61,470 bases of DNA from NCBI GenBank assembly GCA_020632235.1, contig JACKFY010000003.1:160139-221608 (forward strand), written 5' to 3'. Positions 2,134 to 22,831 of the stretch are shown here, piece by piece (the first letter of the stretch is position 1; every line of letters begins with the position of its first letter). The translations under genes were made by a program, and so were the position numbers. The stretch is from Pseudomonadales bacterium. Its GTDB lineage: Bacteria; Patescibacteriota; Microgenomatia; UBA1400; PJMF01. The notes beneath the pieces are model-generated. The model was not told the DNA's origin, did not search any database, and saw only the letters and a program-made list of their open reading frames with translations.

Positions 2134-3254
2134 GGACTGACTTTCTGCACTATGGTGTCACCAGAAAGTTTTTGCTCCAGCAGTCTTACGATCAGCACTA
2201 TCCAAAACGGCAGCAGCAAGAGTATGTAGCGAAGTGAACTAGCAGAACCAAACGCAAAGAGAAATAAGGTCAGGACGCTAAACATCCCCATCATCATGCT
2301 CCAAAATGAGTGGCGTTGTCTCAAGCATGCATAGCAGTAGCCCAGAAATGTCAGTGGCACAGCCCGAGACCATGAGGGCTCAGTGTATATCGTGTGAGGT
2401 TGCCACCAGGCGGCATACTTCCCAAATAATATTGAATCAAAAATAAGAAACTTTGGTATGGTACGCTCTCCTGTCCACCAAGAAAAACGAAACCACTCAA
2501 AACGCGCAAAGTCTACAAGACTATGACTCATAAAATAAACACTGTAGGTGGCTAGGTACACTCCTACTGCCACTACAAATGAGTACAAAGCGTGCAGTAA
2601 CACTTTTTCTTTGTGAGCAACAACCATCACCAGCCCAGCTGGTAGGATCATAAAGGGAAATGGGTACTTGATCGCACTCATTACACCCAAACACACCCCA
2701 ACCAATCCATACTTCATCACTGGACTACATTTTTTTGAAGCAAGCAAAATAAACAGCAGTAATACAGAAATAAGAAGGGGTATGTCAAGCATCGTAAACT
2801 GCAGCTGCTCGGATACAATAGGGAAAGAGAAAAAGATTGCCATGCTCAAGAACCTCATACTGGTGCGCTGCAGTACCATTGCTGAGAATGCATACATGCA
2901 CAGAGCCAACACTCCATATACAACGCTATTTATAGTATAGACGGATCCAAACAGCTGTGCCCCAAAACCATAGAGATACTTCGCCAGCGGAGGATGTTCA
3001 AAGTTGACCGTAGTAGGGTCTTGACCCTGCAGATAGATGTACGCAGCGTAACTATACAAATCTGAGTCACTTATCTCAAGCAACTTTTGATCACCCAATA
3101 CATACTGTGATGTGCTGTATAACACAGAGTAGTCATCAAGTGTTGTTTGTTTGAAAAGCGTCTCTCTATACCCAATCAATGACCAAAAAAATAATACTAA
3201 AAAAATACTAAAAAAACCATACAGCAATATGTTTTCTGTTAAACTATTCGTCAT
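2130..3254 (-). CDS. GT-C fold lipid-carrier-dependent glycosyltransferase
   Basis: SDSDLY and NFEHPPLAKY motifs, polytopic membrane protein; 4-nt overlap with the next gene. Confidence 0.75.
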   Translation of the reverse strand: MTNSLTENILLYGFFSIFLVLFFWSLIGYRETLFKQTTLDDYSVLYSTSQYVLGDQKLLEISDSDLYSYAAYIYLQGQDPTTVNFEHPPLAKYLYGFGAQLFGSVYTINSVVYGVLALCMYAFSAMVLQRTSMRFLSMAIFFSFPIVSEQLQFTMLDIPLLISVLLLFILLASKKCSPVMKYGLVGVCLGVMSAIKYPFPFMILPAGLVMVVAHKEKVLLHALYSFVVAVGVYLATYSVYFMSHSLVDFARFEWFRFSWWTGERTIPKFLIFDSILFGKYAAWWQPHTIYTEPSWSRAVPLTFLGYCYACLRQRHSFWSMMMGMFSVLTLFLFAFGSASSLRYILLLLPFWIVLIVRLLEQKLSGDTIVQKVSP

Positions 3255-7967: not shown

Positions 7968-9452
7968 CTACTCTTTTAGCAATGAAATCTCTTGTCGCAG
8001 CTTGCTGTTTCCTACTATCCAAAATACTACCATATAAGTACATGCTAGGAGCATCATGCCAAAGAGTAACTGTCCTACTCCTTGACTCCACCACCCCCAT
8101 CCCACCATCCCAACCAAAGCCATACAACCAGCTGCCACTAGCTGCCGCCAAAATGTCTCCAAAAAGTGAAACGGCACAAACCGCTTGAGCATAGTGACAG
8201 ACAAGGCCGAACTCCAACTAATGACAAATGCCGCCAGCGCAACACCTTGATATCCCTGCCACCACACAAAAAGAGGTGTTACTACCCACACTAAAACTGT
8301 CCACATGATCATCAACTGTAGCGTCTTGTTGATCTCACCGATAGCATTGAGTGCGTTGGTGAGAGGTGAGGAAAGCGCGCTCCACCCAATACTTAAGGTA
8401 AAGAAAATCAAGCTACTGGCTGCAGGTAGCCACTTGCTGTATTCAGTAAACACTCGCAAAGTAGGGATAATAAATACGCACATTCCAACAATGATAGGAA
8501 AGATCACCAGTGTGATAAAAAAAAGTGATGATTCTATTCCTTTCGCCAGTGCTTTTTTATCATTTTGCAACCGAGAAAACGCAGGAAATGTAACTGCCAT
8601 AATATTTTGTACTGTTAGATTGTACGGATACATCGACCAACTTTTTGCCCATTGAATATATCCAAACTCTCTGGGAGAAAGAAAGAAAACCAATACTAAA
8701 TAAAATAGTTGGTCTTTAATACGAGCCAAGAAATCATTTAGTTGGAACTTAACGCCAAAACCCAGAAGACTTTTCAGTTTTGAGAAGTGAAATGAAAAAC
8801 CAATTGGCCACCACTGAATAGATGCCAATACTAATACTCCACTGATTGATCGAGCAAGAATTGCAGGCGCATAAGAAAGTACGCCAAAATCAGAAATAGC
8901 CAAAGCAATAAGAACAGCATGAAAGACCACTTGTTCAACAATTTGCGGAATGACTAACTTCGAAAAAGCCAACCGTCGCTCAAGCATAACTGAGGGAATT
9001 GTTTTTAGCGCTGCTAAAGGAAAAGAAAATCCAAGTGAGAGTAGAATCAAAAATCCAACCTGACCGAGCCTGTCCTGAAGGATCGGCACCTGATACAAAC
9101 CAATTATTACTAGTACAATTGCCCAAGATAACAGTTGTTGAATAGTGAAAGCCAGCCTATACTCTTCAAGCGTTGGCTCCTCCTCCTTCTGAACCAGTGT
9201 TGCCGCCAGTCCAATGTCAGAAAAAAAGACTAAGATACCAATTACCTGTATTACTAGTCCATACAAACCAAAATCTTCTGGACTGAAGTAGTAACTCAAG
9301 ACAAGTACTGAAACCAAACCTATACCCTGCACCAAAAGGGTCCGAAAAAAGTAGGAGGCAGCACCCGCTATGCTCTTGGCGTGAATACTCTTTTCTGCTG
9401 GAGATGCGTGGGTGGCTGTTTTGTTACGCATGTTTGCTGTGTTTGTAGACAA
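7968..9452 (-). CDS. wzx: Oligosaccharide flippase (Wzx/PST family)
   Basis: LSYYFSPEDFGLYG, DIGLAATLVQK, about 12-14 TM; start may be 9431. Confidence 0.85.
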   Translation of the reverse strand: MSTNTANMRNKTATHASPAEKSIHAKSIAGAASYFFRTLLVQGIGLVSVLVLSYYFSPEDFGLYGLVIQVIGILVFFSDIGLAATLVQKEEEPTLEEYRLAFTIQQLLSWAIVLVIIGLYQVPILQDRLGQVGFLILLSLGFSFPLAALKTIPSVMLERRLAFSKLVIPQIVEQVVFHAVLIALAISDFGVLSYAPAILARSISGVLVLASIQWWPIGFSFHFSKLKSLLGFGVKFQLNDFLARIKDQLFYLVLVFFLSPREFGYIQWAKSWSMYPYNLTVQNIMAVTFPAFSRLQNDKKALAKGIESSLFFITLVIFPIIVGMCVFIIPTLRVFTEYSKWLPAASSLIFFTLSIGWSALSSPLTNALNAIGEINKTLQLMIMWTVLVWVVTPLFVWWQGYQGVALAAFVISWSSALSVTMLKRFVPFHFLETFWRQLVAAGCMALVGMVGWGWWSQGVGQLLFGMMLLACTYMVVFWIVGNSKLRQEISLLKE

Positions 9453-16826: not shown

Positions 16827-16906
16827 AATGTGCTATTAAATTTCGTTATTATAACGCATCAATATCAATTCCCGTAAGTTCTTTTATTTTTAATTTTGAT
16901 CCATTA

Positions 16907-17368
16907 TCAATAGCTTGTAAAGCTATACAGAGATTTTATTGTTACTCCATGGTCTCCTTCCGATGGCGATAAATACCTTTCCTCAGACAAGCCTAATACT
17001 ATTCCAGGACCAAGTGTAGTGGTGGTAATTCCCAGTTTTTGAAGCTTTATAATCAATGTTTCTTTTCTTCCAATACTTGCCATTCCGCTATCTGTTAACG
17101 CATAAGGTCTAGCTAGTTGGGGGTCTGTTTCTACATGCATGGTTCGTGCATCTCTATTAAGTAAATAACTACCTTCGGCAATATCCAACAACAATGATCC
17201 CAAATTAACACCTCTAAAATAAAGCGAAGTACTGGGATCATAAGCTTCAAAAACTTGTGAATCATCGACTTTTTTCAGAATTTGAAATGCTGCATCAACA
17301 ATACTAATTCTAGTTTGTCTCTCCGGAATACCACCTTGATCAAAATTAAAAATATTGCCTTTACTCAT
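16907..17368 (-). CDS. Cassette 6: hypothetical protein
   Basis: 153-aa ORF starting about 35 nt after the attC5 core; no family recognised; the true end may be 16849 (..LQAIDNGSKLKIKELTGIDIDAL*) if frameshifted. Confidence 0.65.
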   Translation of the reverse strand: MSKGNIFNFDQGGIPERQTRISIVDAAFQILKKVDDSQVFEAYDPSTSLYFRGVNLGSLLLDIAEGSYLLNRDARTMHVETDPQLARPYALTDSGMASIGRKETLIIKLQKLGITTTTLGPGIVLGLSEERYLSPSEGDHGVTIKSLYSFTSY

Positions 17369-17402
17369 ATTACTTTACATATTGGTAAATTTAATAGCAT
17401 TT

Positions 17403-17537
17403 CATATAACGTTTTGCAGCTACCCGAAGGTGGCGATTTCGAAGCACTTCACTGTCAGCTAAGCACAAACTTTGATAGAGGCACAAAGCTTGATTTAACC
17501 ACTGAACCGCCACTTTTGGGTAGGTGCTGTTATGGGC
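17403..17537 (-). repeat. attC-like site 5
   Basis: R'' GCCCATAAC (17537-17529, contains the CPBP stop TAA), R' GTTATATG (17410-17403); arms CTACCCAAAAGTGGCG / CTACCCGAAGGTGGCG, 14/16. Confidence 0.9.
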
Positions 17538-18346
17538 TGGTGTTCTTCTCGCGTTCATTTGTCGCTAAATTTTTTGGCTTAAAAATAATGATTGTCAAAA
17601 TACCCCAAACTGTTATTAAAAATCCCATATAGTTCACGATATTTTTGTCGGCAAGGTCTGCTGTGAATGCGATGTCTATGGTTGAGTGAAAAAAAACAGC
17701 ACAAATTAAAATACTTGCTCTGGATGAGTTGTAAAGCCAAGTCAATAAAATACTTCCTGTCAATAGGCTAAATGTCCAGCCGAATATGCCTGCAAAATCC
17801 ATTGAAGTGTAACCTGGTCTGTAAAAGAAAAGTGGCCAATGCCAAACAGCCCAGAATATTGTCAAAATGATACTTGAAGTCAAAGCATTAAACTTGTCTT
17901 GAAACCTTGGCAATGCAAAACCCCGCCAACCAACTTCTTCTCCAAGTCCAAAGAAGATTAAGTTATAAATGAAAAATGTCAACAAGTTGAATTGAGGAAA
18001 CTCTTTTGAAGTTAAAAGACCCGAAATATTGATAGGCGAGTTATCAACGAAGTAGTTTATGATTGTCGCAATGAAAACGAGTAAGAATGGACTTAAAAGT
18101 GCGATTGCAAAATAAATTAGCGGTCTAACTTGTAAGCACTTTTTAATCAAACTTTTTACACCTTCGTTATTTTGAAACATCCAAGTTGTAAGAAATTAAA
18201 GCCGATTAACGGACCAAGTCCACCAAGTCCGTGGTAATAAGCAAGGTCGGCAAATTTGTCAACCCCAAAATGTGTCCATATAGCGGAAGCCAAATTGTCC
18301 AACTGATTAAATATGCAAGTCCGAAATATGTTATTAGTTGTTTCAT
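17530..18346 (-). pseudogene. Cassette 5: CPBP/Abi (CAAX-protease-like) intramembrane metalloprotease, two 5' frameshifts
   Basis: EEVGWRG, WAVWHWP, H motifs; N-terminus MKQLITYFGLAYLISWTIW starts at 18346 in another frame; stop lies inside R''. Confidence 0.85.
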
Positions 18347-18377
18347 TTCTTTTTAAACTCTGTCGTCACTTACACTT

Positions 18378-18518
18378 GCCCATAACGGTTGGGCGGTAAG
18401 GTATGAGTAGTGGCGGATTACGGAGCACTTTCCTGTCAAGATACGATGAACTTGATGCGAGGTAGAACGCCTGAATACGCTACAGCCCCCGCCATTACTT
18501 ATACACGATGTTATGGGC
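18378..18518 (-). repeat. attC-like site 4
   Basis: R'' GCCCATAAC (18518-18510), R' GTTATGGGC (18386-18378); arms GTATAAGTAATGGCGG / GTATGAGTAGTGGCGG, 14/16. Confidence 0.9.
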
Positions 18519-18537
18519 TGGGCTTCTTTTTCTGTCG

Positions 18538-19167
18538 TCAATAACTATACTTGTCATTCAGTCCTATTCCGTTAAAAATCTGTTCTTTGTATTTCTCAAT
18601 TCGACCAATTCTTGTTTGTGATTGCTTGGGTTGTGAAAAATGAATGATATAGCCCCTTTGTCGTCCAGCTGTTAATGCGTAAAATGCTTTCTTAAATGCA
18701 GGGTCTTGTTCAAATGCTTCAAGAAGTTCGTTAGGAATTGGTTCAGGGTTTTTCTTAAACTCTACTTTTTTTCCGCTTTCTTCAATTTCTATTGCTTCCA
18801 AAACGTATTCTTTTAAAACATCTTTTACTTTCTCTATGTCTTTAACATTGGTGAATTTTATAATTCTGTCTGACTGCAAATTTCCTTGTTGTTGGAGTAT
18901 TTTATGTTTGTCAGTCAATAATACTCCTTTGAAAAAGCCAATGTTTGCCGATTCCTTCAATGCACCCACAGAAACAATGTTTTTCCCTTTATGCGTATAG
19001 ACTGGTGCTCCCCATTTTATTTCTTCTGTCAAACCTGTTTCTAAAACAATTTGTCTAAGCATTTCCAATTCTTCACGCCAATTATGGACTTTGCATTGTG
19101 GCGTTCCGCCATACTTACAACGCATACAGCCGTCAATAAGATATTTGTCTACTTGTGGGTTCATCAT
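18538..19167 (-). CDS. Cassette 4 gene 2: DUF1801 plus YdeI/OmpD-associated domain protein
   Basis: EEIKWGAPVY, IGFFKGVLL, AFYALTAGRQRGY, TR..RIEK. Confidence 0.85.
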   Translation of the reverse strand: MMNPQVDKYLIDGCMRCKYGGTPQCKVHNWREELEMLRQIVLETGLTEEIKWGAPVYTHKGKNIVSVGALKESANIGFFKGVLLTDKHKILQQQGNLQSDRIIKFTNVKDIEKVKDVLKEYVLEAIEIEESGKKVEFKKNPEPIPNELLEAFEQDPAFKKAFYALTAGRQRGYIIHFSQPKQSQTRIGRIEKYKEQIFNGIGLNDKYSY

Positions 19168-19540
19168 TTTGTTAGAAGGTTTAATCTGTATTCAATCATT
19201 TTGATAATCAGTTCTTCGGGCAAAGGTTTATTTATAGGGAACAGAACAGAACCTTTACCTTTTTTGTAATCTTTTAATTCTTCATCAAATTTCTCAATTG
19301 TAGTGGGGTGAGGATAAAGTCCAACGTGATTTTATAACCTGCCATCATAATTTGTTGTTCTCTTTTTCCATTTTTTATTAGGGCATACGCTGGAATATTA
19401 TAATTCAATAATTCTTCTGCATCTGGAACAACCTTAAAAATACACTGTCTAATTTGAAGTAATGTATTTTTTACCTTTTCAGGTTGCGAATGGAAGTAAT
19501 CTTCTACTGAATTTATTTTTGCACTATTGTCCATAAGCAT
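19164..19540 (-). pseudogene. Cassette 4 gene 1: DUF1801 (YdhG-like) protein, one frameshift
   Basis: VEDYF, LLQIRQCI, YNIPAY; adding one A restores YKNHVGLYPHP..GKGSVLFP..KPLP and a stop overlapping the next ATG. Confidence 0.8.
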
Positions 19541-19581
19541 TTTAAATTATCCGTTTTTTCAACTGTCTGTCGTTTAGCCTT

Positions 19582-19654
19582 GCCCATAACGGTCGCGTGT
19601 ATGTGGCGTAGCCTGCCGATAGGTGGCTATGACATATACACAGTGTTAGGTAGC
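19582..19654 (-). repeat. attC-like site 3 (short, 73 bp)
   Basis: R'' GCTACCTAAC (19654-19645), R' GTTATGGGC (19590-19582); arms GTATATGTCATAGCC / GTATGTGGCGTAGCC, 12/15. Confidence 0.88.
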
Positions 19655-19669
19655 GTTTTTTTTACTTTT

Positions 19670-19963
19670 TTAGGTTAATAATCCGCAAATCAGCCCACCA
19701 ATTAACCCCAATGCCATTATTGGTTTAAATGCCTTCGTTATCAAAGCATCTGGAAAACTCATTACTCCGCCAATTATTAATCCCTTCAACCAACCCTGTA
19801 TTGGCAAGTCAATGTTGAAAATAATAAACCCAATAGAAAACCTATTTACAAATGAAGCAATAATTGCTTTTTGCTTATCTTCAAATTCCATAAAGAACAT
19901 TGGTATTATTGAGGTAATTCCAAAAATTGTCCCAGCAATCAAACCTTTGATAATATTATTCAT
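19670..19963 (-). CDS. Cassette 3 gene 2: small membrane protein of unknown function
   Basis: 97 aa, about 4 Gly-rich TM segments; ends just before R'' of attC3. Confidence 0.75.
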   Translation of the reverse strand: MNNIIKGLIAGTIFGITSIIPMFFMEFEDKQKAIIASFVNRFSIGFIIFNIDLPIQGWLKGLIIGGVMSFPDALITKAFKPIMALGLIGGLICGLLT

Positions 19964-19967
19964 ATTT

Positions 19968-20312
19968 TCAACTTTTTAATTCGTAGGCAGATTTAGCCAA
20001 CTTATCAATTCTTTGTCAACATCATTAAGTTTTTCCAATTTAACTATATGCTTAAATCTGTTAGCAGATATTTTTTCAATTTTTTGTATTCTTTCACTCT
20101 CAATTTCAAAGTTTGTGTGAATTTTCAACAAGAGGTAGTTTTTCCGTGAGTAAACTCCAGCAAATCCCGATTTACTGTCCAAATGAATGCTTGACTTTTT
20201 AGGTAATTGAGTTACTGTTCCAAATTTTTTCGCATTCGGTTATTAGTTTCTCGTAGATTTTGGAAACTATTGGTTCTTTATTTATCAAGTGGTCATTAAC
20301 CGTATATTCCAT
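19968..20312 (-). pseudogene. Cassette 3 gene 1: DUF5655-like protein, two homopolymer frameshifts
   Basis: Reconstructed MEYTVNDHLINKEPIVSKIYEKL..PKKSSIHL..FAGVYSRK..HIVKLEKLNDVDKELISWLKSAY. Confidence 0.7.
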
Positions 20313-20331
20313 TTGTTTGTTTTTTCGTAAT

Positions 20332-20467
20332 GCTACCTAACGTTTTGAATATGGTGCGTTTGGCATTTTGAAACACGTCATTTTCAAACTACTATTATTT
20401 TTTATTAATTGCTATAAACTTCATTTTTTGCACTTTCTGCCAAATGCACTATATTTTTGTTAGCTGC
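20332..20467 (-). repeat. attC-like site 2
   Basis: R'' GCAGCTAAC (20467-20459), R' GTTAGGTAGC (20341-20332); arms ATATAGTGCATTTGGCA / ATATGGTGCGTTTGGCA, 15/17. Confidence 0.9.
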
Positions 20468-20472
20468 AGGTA

Positions 20473-21049
20473 TTACTTTAATTCTCTTCCTAATTTTTCA
20501 ACTTTGTTAACCAACTTTTTCTTTTTGTACATCTGTTGAACTTTTAACAGGTCCAAAAGTTGTTATTTTCACGGGTTTAATGCCAACAAAAACTCCAAAA
20601 TCGACTTTTTCATTGAATTATGTCCAGGCTTTTATAAATCAATGAATAATACCAATTTGGTGTGTCAGTCGTTACAATTAATCTTGCAGTTTTTCAGTTA
20701 ATAGTTTTTGAGAACGGTGATTTCTCTTGGTATTCAAAAGCAAATCCAGGCAGAAACAATCTCATCAAAAATCTTTTAACAACGCAGGATAAGTCCCCCA
20801 CCAATTGGGATAAACGAAAACCAAATGATCAGCTTTTGTTATTAAATCCCATACTTTTTGTAAGTCTGGTTCCAAATCTGTTCGTTTTCTGTACCCATAT
20901 TTTAATACAGGCGAAAATTCTAAATCTGTGAGGTTAATAATTTCACATTCTGTTTCGGACTTATCTACTCCTGTTTTGTATTTTTCTGCCAATGAAGTGC
21001 AAAAACTCTCTTTGTCAGGATGTCCATTAATTATCAATATTCGTTTCAT
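20473..21049 (-). pseudogene. Cassette 2: NAD(P)H:quinone oxidoreductase (flavodoxin_2/MdaB-like), several frameshifts
   Basis: ILIINGHP, ADHLVFVYPNWWGTYPALLK; the downstream LFLPGFAF, KTARLIVTTDTP and GIKPVKIT segments lie in shifted frames. Confidence 0.85.
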
Positions 21050-21078
21050 ACTTACTGTCCTTTATATTGGTTTTACTT

Positions 21079-21223
21079 GCAGCTAACGTTTGCGTGTATG
21101 AGAAGTTTCGCACACAACCTTAATTTTATCAATTAAATGTGCGAAATTTGGGAGAAAGAAAAAGTGCAACCTTTGAAAATTACTAACGCACTTTTTCTTG
21201 AACCTTATACACGCTGTTATATG
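21079..21223 (-). repeat. attC-like site 1
   Basis: R'' CATATAAC (21223-21216), R' GTTAGCTGC (21087-21079); arms GCGTGTATAAG / GCGTGTATGAG. Confidence 0.88.
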
Positions 21224-21243
21224 ACGTATTGCTCAGACCCCTA

Positions 21244-21840
21244 TTAGTAGAGATTAAATTTGTCTAAATGATCTCTAATTCTAAAAAATATTTTTTTGTG
21301 ACCTTCTGAAGTCGGATGTAAGCCATCGTCTAAATCAGTTTCATTAATTACATCAAAGGTTGGAATAAAATGGACGTTTTGTTGGGATGAAATTTTTGCA
21401 ATTGCTTCATCGTATTTTTTTAGCGTTTCGTTCTTGTAGTACTTTTTCTTGTCACGGAGGTAAACAGCGTTGATTTTTTCCTCATCAACTTTTGTTAAAC
21501 CAACTAAAATAATATGAGAAGTGTAGGATCTGGCCATATCAACAAGCTCTTCAAAATTTTTGATTGTATCTTCGAGATTGACTCTATATTTCTTCTCATC
21601 AGTAAAATACTGTGAATCGTTGCCGGCAATTGCAAAAATTATTATTTCGGGTTTACGTGGCTTACATTCGTTATTAAACCTTTGAAGCAGGTCATTAGTA
21701 TCGTCTCCAGAAATACCAAGGTTAAAAATAAAAATGCCTTTTCCAAGAAGATATCTCTTTAGAAGGTCACACCAGCCGCCTTCTTTAAAGTCGTTCATGC
21801 CGCTGGTAATACTGGCTCCAAATACACAGGCTTTCTTCAT
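21244..21840 (-). CDS. Cassette 1: SGNH/GDSL hydrolase
   Basis: Block I FGASIT, block II NLGISG, block III GND, block V DGLHP; intact. Confidence 0.9.
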   Translation of the reverse strand: MKKACVFGASITSGMNDFKEGGWCDLLKRYLLGKGIFIFNLGISGDDTNDLLQRFNNECKPRKPEIIIFAIAGNDSQYFTDEKKYRVNLEDTIKNFEELVDMARSYTSHIILVGLTKVDEEKINAVYLRDKKKYYKNETLKKYDEAIAKISSQQNVHFIPTFDVINETDLDDGLHPTSEGHKKIFFRIRDHLDKFNLY

Positions 21841-21904
21841 AAAAAATATTTTTTAGAATTGTTTGTAAGATAAACTTTCATTTACGGTTGTCTGAGCAAT
21901 ATTT

Positions 21905-21966
21905 CATATAACACTTGTCTATACGAACCTTTTGTAACTAAAAGTTAGTATAGACAAGATATCAAC
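21905..21966 (-). other. attI-like primary recombination site with adjacent hairpin
   Basis: Core GTTATATG (21912-21905) matches R'' of attC1; no inverse core upstream; perfect 11-bp inverted repeat at 21914-21924 / 21948-21958. Confidence 0.7.
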
Positions 21967-21988: not shown

Positions 21989-22831
21989 ATGGTAAAAACG
22001 GATATTACGAACTTTAGGAAGAAGATGAAGATTCAGCGGTACTCCCCTCGTACCGTCAAAATATACTGCTCGCATGTTGCGCAGTTTTTCGCACATAGAC
22101 AACTGCAACCGAATCAAGTCACAAAAATAAATATCGAAGAGTATGTAGCGTTTTGCATTGACCAGAAAAACATCGCGTTTTCAACCCAAAAAGGCATCGT
22201 GGGTGCAATCAAGCTCTTTTACACATTATGCTATAACAGAAACCTGCACATCGACTACATCTACCCCAAACGAAAAGAGTATAAGATGCCCACAGTACTC
22301 TCACAAAATGAAGTAGCCCTACTACTCAACGCGCCCACAAATCTCAAACATAAGACAATCTTAAGCCTTATATACAGCTGCGGACTCAGGCTCTCGGAGG
22401 TTGTCAATCTCAAAATAGCAGATATCGACTCAGCTCGCATGCTGATTCACATACGGGCAAGTAAAAATAACCGCGACAGAGACGTGATGCTCTCGCCCAA
22501 AATTCTCACACTGCTCAGAAGTTACTTTGCAGAGTACAAACCGACGGTTTATTTGTTTGAGGGGCAAAAAAGAGGCAAGTACTCCACTCGCTCTGTGCAA
22601 AAAGTTTTCAAAATAGCACTCGCAAATTCAGGCATCCAAAAGAGCGCGAGCGTGCATACTCTTCGTCATTCTTTTGCAACACATATGATAGAAAACGGCA
22701 TAGATGTACGCGTTGTCCAAGAGCTGCTCGGGCACAAAAATATCCAGACTACCCAACTCTACACGCACATCACTACCCACATGAAATCAAAGATAAAAAG
22801 TCCCTTTGACACGTTGCTTGCCTCAACTTAA
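21989..22831 (+). CDS. Tyrosine recombinase, integron-integrase-like (short form)
   Basis: N-terminal SAM-like region (YSPRTVKIY); catalytic R (YSCGLRLSE), K (SKNNRDR), HTLRH, LLGH, TTQLY; divergent from the cassette array. Confidence 0.92.
   Translation: MVKTDITNFRKKMKIQRYSPRTVKIYCSHVAQFFAHRQLQPNQVTKINIEEYVAFCIDQKNIAFSTQKGIVGAIKLFYTLCYNRNLHIDYIYPKRKEYKMPTVLSQNEVALLLNAPTNLKHKTILSLIYSCGLRLSEVVNLKIADIDSARMLIHIRASKNNRDRDVMLSPKILTLLRSYFAEYKPTVYLFEGQKRGKYSTRSVQKVFKIALANSGIQKSASVHTLRHSFATHMIENGIDVRVVQELLGHKNIQTTQLYTHITTHMKSKIKSPFDTLLAST

Follow-up and report, generated by a model that had tools for sequence, protein, structure and literature searches.

The window, as we call the whole stretch of 61,470 nucleotides (nt) analysed here (contig JACKFY010000003.1 of assembly GCA_020632235.1), carries an integron-like platform in which a tyrosine recombinase gene on the plus strand diverges from six promoterless cassettes (c1-c6) on the minus strand, which run from 21912 down to 16831. 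The recombinase gene adjoins the array with the insertion site between them (first core at 21912), which is the layout of an integron, and between the cassettes lie five sites, here called attC-like, that form imperfect hairpins of 68-142 nt with AAC...GTT ends. The sixth cassette is truncated by a remnant of the insertion sequence IS3 and has lost its inverse core (R''), its attC and the interruption of the stem, or hinge, that is described below. We consider here the inverted repeats that join the two ends of each cassette beyond the core of 7 base pairs (bp). This feature is real and partly ordinary, and its distinctive part, a stem interrupted at a fixed position and then resumed, is new for integron cassette sites.

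A literal check of the sequence confirmed all six repeats, with their positions and scores (Table 1), as a first-pass annotation of the window had described them. The anatomy is directly visible in the five complete cassettes, where the match is perfect for 9-10 bases, breaks at position 10-11 and then resumes; counted from the G|TT boundary, the perfect runs are 9, 10, 10, 9 and 9 in c1-c5, which places them within the 9-11 nt of self-complementarity expected of integron cassettes (PMC2727003). At position 11 all five have an A on the start side and, once the end side is reverse-complemented, a G opposite, a combination that gives an A·C mismatch in the top strand and a G·T wobble in the bottom strand. 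Among 319 inverted GTTNNNN/NNNNAAC pairs in the window backbone, 9.7% have by chance a perfect run of at least 9, as against 5/5 complete cassettes (about 9e-6), and none has a second helix of at least 12. At positions 8-23 the own ends of c1-c5 match 14, 9, 6, 6 and 9 times, compared with about 4 for non-own pairs. The repeats had also been called cassette-specific, and beyond position 11 they are indeed private to each cassette, but positions 8-11 conform to a consensus of the family (G, A or C, A or C, A); GTTATATGAAAT is common to c1 and c6, and GTTATGGGCAAG to c4 and c5. On otherwise identical arms, GGCT/AGCC in c4 is matched by GTGT/ACAC in c5, a compensatory change.

Table 1. Features of the recombinase and cassette platform. 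Positions are those of the window; cassettes are read on the minus strand from the G of R' (start) to the C of R'' (end), and cargo is named from Pfam.
Feature	Position	Strand	Match or sequence	Cargo or remark
Recombinase gene	21989..22831	+		IntI/XerA-like tyrosine recombinase, 280 amino acids; Pfam PF13495 (SAM-like N-domain) and PF00589 (catalytic domain)
Hairpin at attI position	21914..21958	-	11-bp perfect arms CTTGTCTATAC/GTATAGACAAG	One base before first core GTTATAT at 21912; read from sequence
Cassette 1	start 21912, end 21216	-	21/23: 9 bp, 2 mismatches, 12 bp	GDSL hydrolase
Cassette 1 start arm	21890..21912	-	GTTATATGA-AA-TATTGCTCAGAC	
Cassette 1 end arm	21216..21238	-	GTCTGAGCAATA-CG-TCATATAAC	Extension plus R''; past stop codon of GDSL gene
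attC-like site 1	21081..21222	-	R'' ATATAAC ... R' GTTAGCT	142 nt
Cassette 2	start 21087, end 20459	-	15/18	Flavodoxin-like reductase
Cassette 2 start arm	21070..21087	-	GTTAGCTGCA-A-GTAAAAC	
Cassette 2 end arm	20459..20476	-		
attC-like site 2	20335..20465	-		131 nt
Cassette 3	start 20341, end 19645	-	12/13	DUF5655 fragment and small protein without Pfam match
Cassette 3 start arm	20329..20341	-	GTTAGGTAGC-A-TT	
Cassette 3 end arm	19645..19657	-		
attC-like site 3	19584..19651	-		68 nt
Cassette 4	start 19590, end 18510	-	13/15	Two DUF1801/YdeI genes
Cassette 4 start arm	19576..19590	-	GTTATGGGC-AA-GGCT	Identity to eight other copies starts here
Cassette 4 end arm	18510..18524	-	AGCC-CA-GCCCATAAC	
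attC-like site 4	18380..18516	-		137 nt; final ~15 nt before next GTT unlike other copies of cassette 4
Cassette 5	start 18386, end 17529	-	13/15	CPBP protease
Cassette 5 start arm	18372..18386	-	GTTATGGGC-AA-GTGT	
Cassette 5 end arm	17529..17543	-		Overlaps end of CPBP-protease open reading frame
attC-like site 5	17404..17535	-		132 nt
Cassette 6	start 17410, end cut by IS3 remnant	-	Perfect 13-mer TGCTATTAAATTT, beginning 4 nt past core	Protein without Pfam match
Cassette 6 start arm	17387..17410	-	GTTATAT-GAAA-TGCTATTAAATTT	
Cassette 6 surviving distal arm	16831..16843	-	AAATTTAATAGCA	Reverse complement of 13-mer; abuts IS3 remnant

The complementarity joins the two ends of one and the same cassette and not the ends of array neighbours, the R'' and R' of a single site in the array pairing over about 4 bp; the base of the attC hairpin would therefore be lengthened in the excised circle only. 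Circular junctions were rebuilt by joining the cassette's own attC to its own first bases, folded with DNA parameters and set against the same site cut back to the 7-bp cores. This check had been proposed with the first-pass annotation, and its outcome bears the proposal out, as the minimum-energy structure contains the extension in 5/5 complete cassettes with a gain of 5.8-15.7 kcal/mol in the bottom strand: from -27.7 to -43.4 in c1, -19.3 to -26.5 in c2, -17.2 to -23.0 in c3, -17.6 to -26.7 in c4 and -25.1 to -34.7 kcal/mol in c5. Sites 1-5 followed by their neighbour in the array fold more weakly (-26.7, -18.0, -14.8, -24.0 and -24.7 kcal/mol), and in c2-c5 the bottom strand is more stable than the top by 3.4-7.8 kcal/mol.

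Arrays beside related recombinases were surveyed by detecting AAC...hairpin...GTT sites outside long open reading frames and chaining them only where the 7-mer R'(k) was identical to the reverse-complemented R''(k+1); sequence past the 7-mer core was not used in selecting cassettes, and orientation was taken from the longest open reading frame of the cassette. We discarded a link if it overlapped a better one, ran across the recombinase gene or fell within annotated non-cassette genes, and added a few cassettes by eye. Detection by local complementarity alone, by folding energy alone or by an inverted 7-mer with one hairpin was rejected, as it gave mostly false matches in the GC-richer backbone, and a covariance model from the five attC-like sites was dropped after the MAFFT alignment misplaced the stems. 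The resulting set, called class S, holds 32 cassettes without insert from 22 loci in Bacteroidota, Ignavibacteria-type and candidate-phyla genomes and metagenome contigs, with IntI/XerA-like recombinases of 270-280 amino acids that all lack the IntI insertion.

Recurrence of the stem and its covariation are observed directly in this set. The perfect run is 9-10 bp long in 29 of the 32 cassettes, and own pairs match at positions 8-15 with frequencies of 1.00,.94,.62,.03,.78,.75,.75 and.62, compared with.48,.31,.32,.06,.43,.31,.25 and.34 for non-own pairs; past position 15 the own pairs are at baseline. Position 11 carries an A on the start side in 30/32 cassettes and a G opposite in 23/32. Positions 8-15 hold 33 mismatches of the bottom-strand G·T type and 3 of the top-strand type, and the second helix, allowing a hinge of up to 4 nt, has a median of 4, as against 2 in the non-own-pair null (Mann-Whitney p=1.5e-13).

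As controls we used 15 canonical cassettes from class 1 arrays and from loci with an IntI above the TIGR02249 cut-off (seven from L103, one each from L110, L114 and L122, two from L125, and blaVIM, arr-3 and aacA4), the class 1 array L141 being left out of the counts; dfrA14 and aadA1 resemble this set. Their perfect runs of 7-13 bp are as long as or longer than the 9-10 bp of the window, and pairing at positions 8-13 is.93,.80,.73,.73,.53 and.47 before it falls to baseline. According to Bouvier 2009, most classical cassettes self-pair past the 7-nt boxes, over "9-11 consecutive complementary nt" (PMC2727003), and the first 2-3 pairs past the core are for this reason routine. By contrast, position 11 is paired in 73% of the canonical cassettes and in 3% of class S, the A/G combination is found there in 0/15 canonical and 23/32 class S cassettes (Fisher p=2.4e-6), and the second helix of the canonical set does not exceed the null (p=0.28, n=15). 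The contrast is thus one of architecture, a single uninterrupted helix in canonical cassettes and two helices with a fixed asymmetric hinge in short-recombinase arrays. The extension as such, on which the first-pass annotation had remarked, is routine; the peculiarity lies in a fixed position 10-11, unpaired or a wobble, and in the second helix that follows it. That annotation had itself named routine extension in canonical cassettes as the result that would speak against it, and this is what we find for the first 2-3 pairs, but not for the interrupted stem with its second helix. Its suggestion of a folding requirement belonging to this type of recombinase fits the recurrence with covariation in related arrays, while the mere extension is shared with classical cassettes. 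A fixed mismatch at position 11, with a second and cassette-specific helix behind it, seems to be a hallmark of those arrays whose recombinase is short and lacks the insertion.

Nine cassettes were examined in the candidate-phyla arrays L041, L045, L091, L129 and L130. In seven of them a perfect distal helix of 16-18 bp begins exactly 4 nt past the core on the start side (GTTNNNN-GAAA/GACA/GCAA-helix), and on the end side a GC-rich module of 27-69 nt stands between R'' and the distal helix; another cassette of L130 has 9 bp, a 2-nt hinge and 17 bp, without a module. Since the distal helix is kept despite the module, it is a separate element, and the hinge is the point where a whole branch can be inserted. 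The module cassettes are predicted to fold into a branched junction closed by the distal helix. By the form of their stems, c1 and c6 (GTTATATGA.., distal helix of 12 and at least 13 bp) are of the candidate-phyla style and c2-c5 (distal helix of 2-4 bp, e.g. GTTATGGGC-AA/TG-GGCT) of the Bacteroidota style. The module lies at L041:8811-8854 and 8036-8093 (minus strand) and also occurs in L130, L129, L045 and L091, with motifs such as GGGGACGTTGCRCTTT and CGCTCC..CGTCGCTCACCC; part of it resembles a stretch within neighbouring attC-like sites, and the cassettes of the window are without it. In L130 the stretch of about 80 nt in front of the first cassette (aatacactat..gttcgtataacctagtGTT) occurs a second time, almost unchanged, at 2925-3010 (minus strand), at a distance of 7 kb from the recombinase gene; a further cassette, whose distal repeat measures 16 bp, comes after this copy, which is a duplicated insertion site.

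The recombinase of the window scores 196 bits with the integron-integrase model TIGR02249, below the cut-off of 265 and with the match split at profile position ~179, and 219 bits, against a cut-off of 220, with the XerA model NF040815, which NCBI names "recombinase/integron integrase". Aligned with VchIntIA (2A3V), its residues 8-181 correspond to 8-182 and its residues 200-274 to 244-318, so that about 43 amino acids of the IntI segment 183-243 have no counterpart. MacDonald and colleagues are said to have described this segment in 2006 as holding the helix and the residues responsible for binding the extrahelical bases of attC. Among solved structures, the best matches come from archaeal XerA proteins (PDB 5HXY, E 1e-41; 4A8E, E 2e-37). 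Protein searches found recombinases 35-49% identical in Bacteroidota, Ignavibacteria-type and Balneolales genomes and 53-66% identical in candidate-phyla genomes, e.g. Nomurabacteria and Dojkabacteria, and the metagenome scan brought up genuine IntI loci as well. Model scores divide these proteins into two classes, short ones with 189-217 bits for TIGR02249 and 183-242 for NF040815, and canonical IntI with 433-495 bits for TIGR02249; relatives with arrays reach 226-242 bits with NF040815, apart from L031 with 183. Not every relative has an array, as the recombinase of L002 adjoins a restriction-modification system and has none. Smyshlyaev et al. 2021 state that the insertion "is not fully conserved" in an integron-like subgroup of simple tyrosine recombinases, call it essential for integron function and describe no cassette arrays for members without it (PMC8138268); the short recombinases considered here are probably the insertion-less members of that subgroup.

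The array is co-oriented with the recombinase gene and begins about 50-180 nt past its stop codon in L009, L010, L011, L015, L022, L025, L031, L034, L038, L049, L066, L067 and L080, overall Bacteroidota or metagenome loci, and lies upstream and divergent in the window and in L004, L008, L014, L017, L041, L070 and L130; one recombinase family therefore has two platform architectures.

The mobility of the cassettes could be followed with cassette 4: over 1190 nt, the window copy (18387-19590) shows 99.1-99.8% identity with those of eight further metagenome contexts (L132-L139), with different neighbours on both sides and often with short recombinase genes nearby. The identity starts exactly at G|TTATGGGCAAGG and stops just before the next GTT, as expected of a discrete mobile unit, and because this boundary falls at G|TT both repeat arms lie inside that unit and are directly seen to travel with it. 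The partners joined to cassette 4 share only GTT(A) at the crossover, which is too short for the classical overlap of 6-8 bp and is what an integron-type single-strand exchange would be expected to leave. The last ~15 nt of the attC of the window copy read …CATACCTTACCGCCCAACC, compared with …CATACACGTAACC elsewhere, as if the site were recombinant. A miniature inverted-repeat transposable element, or a transposon with terminal inverted repeats, was ruled out, as the eight contexts of cassette 4 show no target duplication; one end of a cassette is, moreover, always an attC-like hairpin and the other a GTT common to the preceding site, and a Pfam search of the window's cassettes found no transposase gene.

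Assembled short-read contigs of the source activated-sludge sample break or branch at the same cassette boundaries. Their depth is about 14 over c1-c2, about 21 over the backbone and about 49 over c4, and the summed depth reaches 500-670 over c3 (19596-20341) and up to ~3,700 over attC-like site 5 (17424-17604), from which it follows that individual cassettes and sites are common to many genomes of that community. A few joints in these contigs were considered as excision products and not read as such, their sides being short (20-30 nt) and at shared cores. The nearest named relatives of the c1 protein belong to Paceibacterota/Patescibacteria (70-78% identity), and the window recombinase, like cassette 1, has relatives in candidate phyla; the c4 protein has dozens of 98-100% identical copies, of which the named ones are from Bacteroidetes. 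On these protein relationships, a Bacteroidetes-like c4 beside a candidate-phyla-like recombinase and c1 points to recent exchange of cassettes across phyla.

With moderate confidence we read the repeats as the selected outer stem of a folded, bottom-strand recombination site that belongs to the excised cassette. Excision as a circle would bring the first bases of the cassette (G|TT...) to the 3' side of its own attC-like hairpin, where they could pair with the bases just 5' of its own inverse core (R''). The proximal helix of 9-10 bp (the 7-bp core and 2-3 more), present in classical integrons too, would offer the monomer on the crossover arm a duplex of the normal length for a tyrosine recombinase. 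It would end at the hinge of position 10-11, with A on the start side and usually G opposite, where the bottom strand would have a G·T wobble, sometimes with an adjoining T·T, and the top strand an A·C mismatch. The distal helix, whose 3-17 bp vary with the cassette, would then clamp the base of the hairpin. Such a clamp may stabilise the folding of AT-rich sites, and a hinge that the bottom strand can tolerate but that disrupts the top strand could bias which strand folds. The reading supposes that the recombinase needs or reads the stem, that the bottom strand would be the reactive one and that exchange would be single-stranded as in integrons. More speculatively, and with clearly less assurance, the hinge itself might be a recognition mark for a recombinase without the hairpin-reading insertion of IntI. 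An equally tentative extension of this idea is that the two-part stem with its G·T (±T·T) hinge might let an insertion-less, Xer-like recombinase carry out strand-selective single-strand recombination of the integron type, in place of recognition through extrahelical bases, and that the form of the stem might also record the provenance of a cassette, long distal helices coming from candidate phyla and those of 3-5 bp from Bacteroidota. Were this true, the array would document recent traffic of cassettes between Bacteroidota and a candidate-phyla host by way of a shared, undescribed branch of integrons.

Several points weigh against a selected outer stem. The first 2-3 extra pairs are not special (PMC2727003), c3 and c4 are just modestly over background beyond position 15, and the distal helices of c2 and c3 have 2-3 bp, each within chance (null P(>=3)=0.30 with a free search for the hinge). 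Position 12 is often a T on both sides (non-own match 0.43), so that part of the apparent pairing is shared consensus. Cassette 1 is equally stable in both strands, and in the array the arms lie 0.6-1.2 kb apart, so that the stem cannot aid excision as simply as it would act in the circle. The hinge analysis is post hoc, having been designed once the pattern was seen, class S cassettes may share descent and are hence not fully independent, and the canonical set is small, with 7 of its 15 cassettes from one locus.

Some of these points would suit an account in which the stem is an ordinary extension, as in classical cassettes, and the remainder noise: most classical cassettes pair over 9-11 consecutive nt (PMC2727003), the canonical controls over 7-13 bp, and the distal helices of c2 and c3 are short. 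We consider this unlikely, since position 11 pairs in 3% of class S as against 73% of canonical cassettes and carries A/G in 23/32 as against 0/15, since class S alone pairs again at positions 12-15 (0.62-0.78), and since distal helices reach 12-17 bp in c1, c6, L008 and L130 and 16-18 bp behind the module. The arms might instead pair within the array, in single-stranded DNA at the replication fork, looping the gene out and giving a branched, Holliday-junction-like excision substrate that joins the cassette's own R' and R''. Cassettes of 0.6-1.2 kb are short, and it is indeed a cassette's own start and own end that are complementary, R'' and R' of an array site pairing over just ~4 bp; but a loop of 0.6-1.2 kb is costly to close, the R/L junction would lack strand continuity and the product would not be a normal core site, which makes this proposal improbable.

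No more probable, in our judgement, is an origin of the repeats as an unselected scar of cassette genesis, by templated or snap-back copying of one end or by capture through a hairpin-forming element. Long perfect repeats (12-18 bp) private to each cassette speak in its favour, yet a scar should decay at random, and here one position is always imperfect, with its letters and orientation fixed, changes elsewhere are compensatory, and the distal helix survives insertion of the 27-69-nt module. A mismatch that is both conserved and asymmetric, together with compensatory changes, speaks for selection that is still at work and against a passive scar. As the arms lie in or beside untranslated flanks, a role in RNA can also be conceived, in which the 5' and 3' ends of the cassette message pair to stabilise or insulate it. 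We hold this to be very improbable: the fixed imperfection is a true mismatch, A·C, when read in the sense (top) strand and becomes G·T in the antisense DNA strand alone, 33/36 wobble-type mismatches favour the bottom strand, and the recombination core is part of the arms.

Seen beside known systems, a selected outer stem would belong to a platform that in many respects resembles a classical integron (IntI1, VchIntIA). Promoterless genes in one orientation stand beside a divergently transcribed tyrosine recombinase, the sites are imperfect hairpins of which the bottom strand folds better, the cassette boundary is at a conserved G|TT, and the first bases of the cassette complement its own inverse core, with self-pairing to 9-11 nt (PMC2727003). 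Unlike classical integrons, the recombinase has no IntI insertion (~43 amino acids), the core is GTTA+N3 and not a strict GTTRRRY (among the six R' and five R'' boxes of the window, only GTTAGGT and ACCTAAC satisfy the strict RYYYAAC/GTTRRRY consensus), and the attI position is occupied by a hairpin, which classical attI sites are not. Unlike the 15 canonical cassettes, the stem is broken at position 10-11 by a fixed A/G and continues for 3-17 bp, and a module of 27-69 nt can be accommodated there.

With Xer proteins, and archaeal XerA in particular (5HXY, 4A8E, the best structural matches), the recombinase shares the domain layout and the lack of an insertion. The arm of a dif site is 11 bp, and the proximal helix is about as long as one such arm. 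Unlike the window gene, which stands beside a cassette array, Xer acts on one duplex dif site of 28 bp per replicon by two strand exchanges, and the junctions of cassette 4, with GTT(A) only, do not have the shared overlap of 6-8 bp seen in Xer/dif recombination. Val et al. reportedly found in 2005 that CTX-phi integrates through XerCD at a folded, single-stranded attP hairpin, with one strand exchange that is resolved by replication. The likeness of that system lies in an insertion-less, Xer-type recombinase acting on a one-strand hairpin, a precedent for such chemistry without the IntI insertion; unlike the arrays studied here, CTX-phi uses the host XerCD and a chromosomal dif, moves a phage genome rather than a cassette array, and is not known to have private outer stems.

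In integron surveys the IntI insertion and the 7-bp core serve as the defining traits, the insertion being deemed essential for reading the extrahelical bases of attC, and IntegronFinder 2.0 reports a single complete integron in Bacteroidetes proper. Here, widespread arrays in Bacteroidota, Ignavibacteria-like and candidate-phyla genomes place mobile cassettes beside a recombinase without that insertion, and their conserved, strand-asymmetric site feature is a candidate for strand choice and hairpin recognition without it. Full-text literature searches found no account of cassette arrays with insertion-less IntI-like recombinases, nor of an interrupted outer stem. A start of GTT-N7-A and an end of C-N7-AAC, followed by private complementarity, may serve as a signature in searching for such cassettes and for their exchange across phyla.

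The cassettes of the window have a G+C content of 32-38%, compared with 47% in the backbone. Between 15500 and 23000 there were no Rfam matches, and matches to promoter and terminator consensus sequences were at the level of shuffled sequence. A comparison with short-read contigs of the source sample showed single-base homopolymer indels in the window, with 14 gaps in 1.6 kb across c1-c2 and positions within 17689-20763, e.g. 19329, 19991, 20225, 20453, 20522, 20586, 20594 and 20763. The repeat arms are unaffected among the indels listed, beyond which there are 12 further ones, and the frameshifted "pseudogenes" in cassettes 2-4 are probably assembly errors rather than products of decay.

Two further loci carry the short recombinase in unusual settings. 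In L044 (3594-7490), a candidate-phyla contig, a short recombinase of 57% identity, with one small gene upstream of it, stands between an N-terminal and a C-terminal transketolase gene, an unusual point of insertion. In L135 (1-5687), a copy of the DUF1801 cassette c4 and a short recombinase of 272 amino acids adjoin genes with crAss-like phage ring-protein domains (PF24228, PF25702), from which the short-recombinase platform may be phage-borne too.

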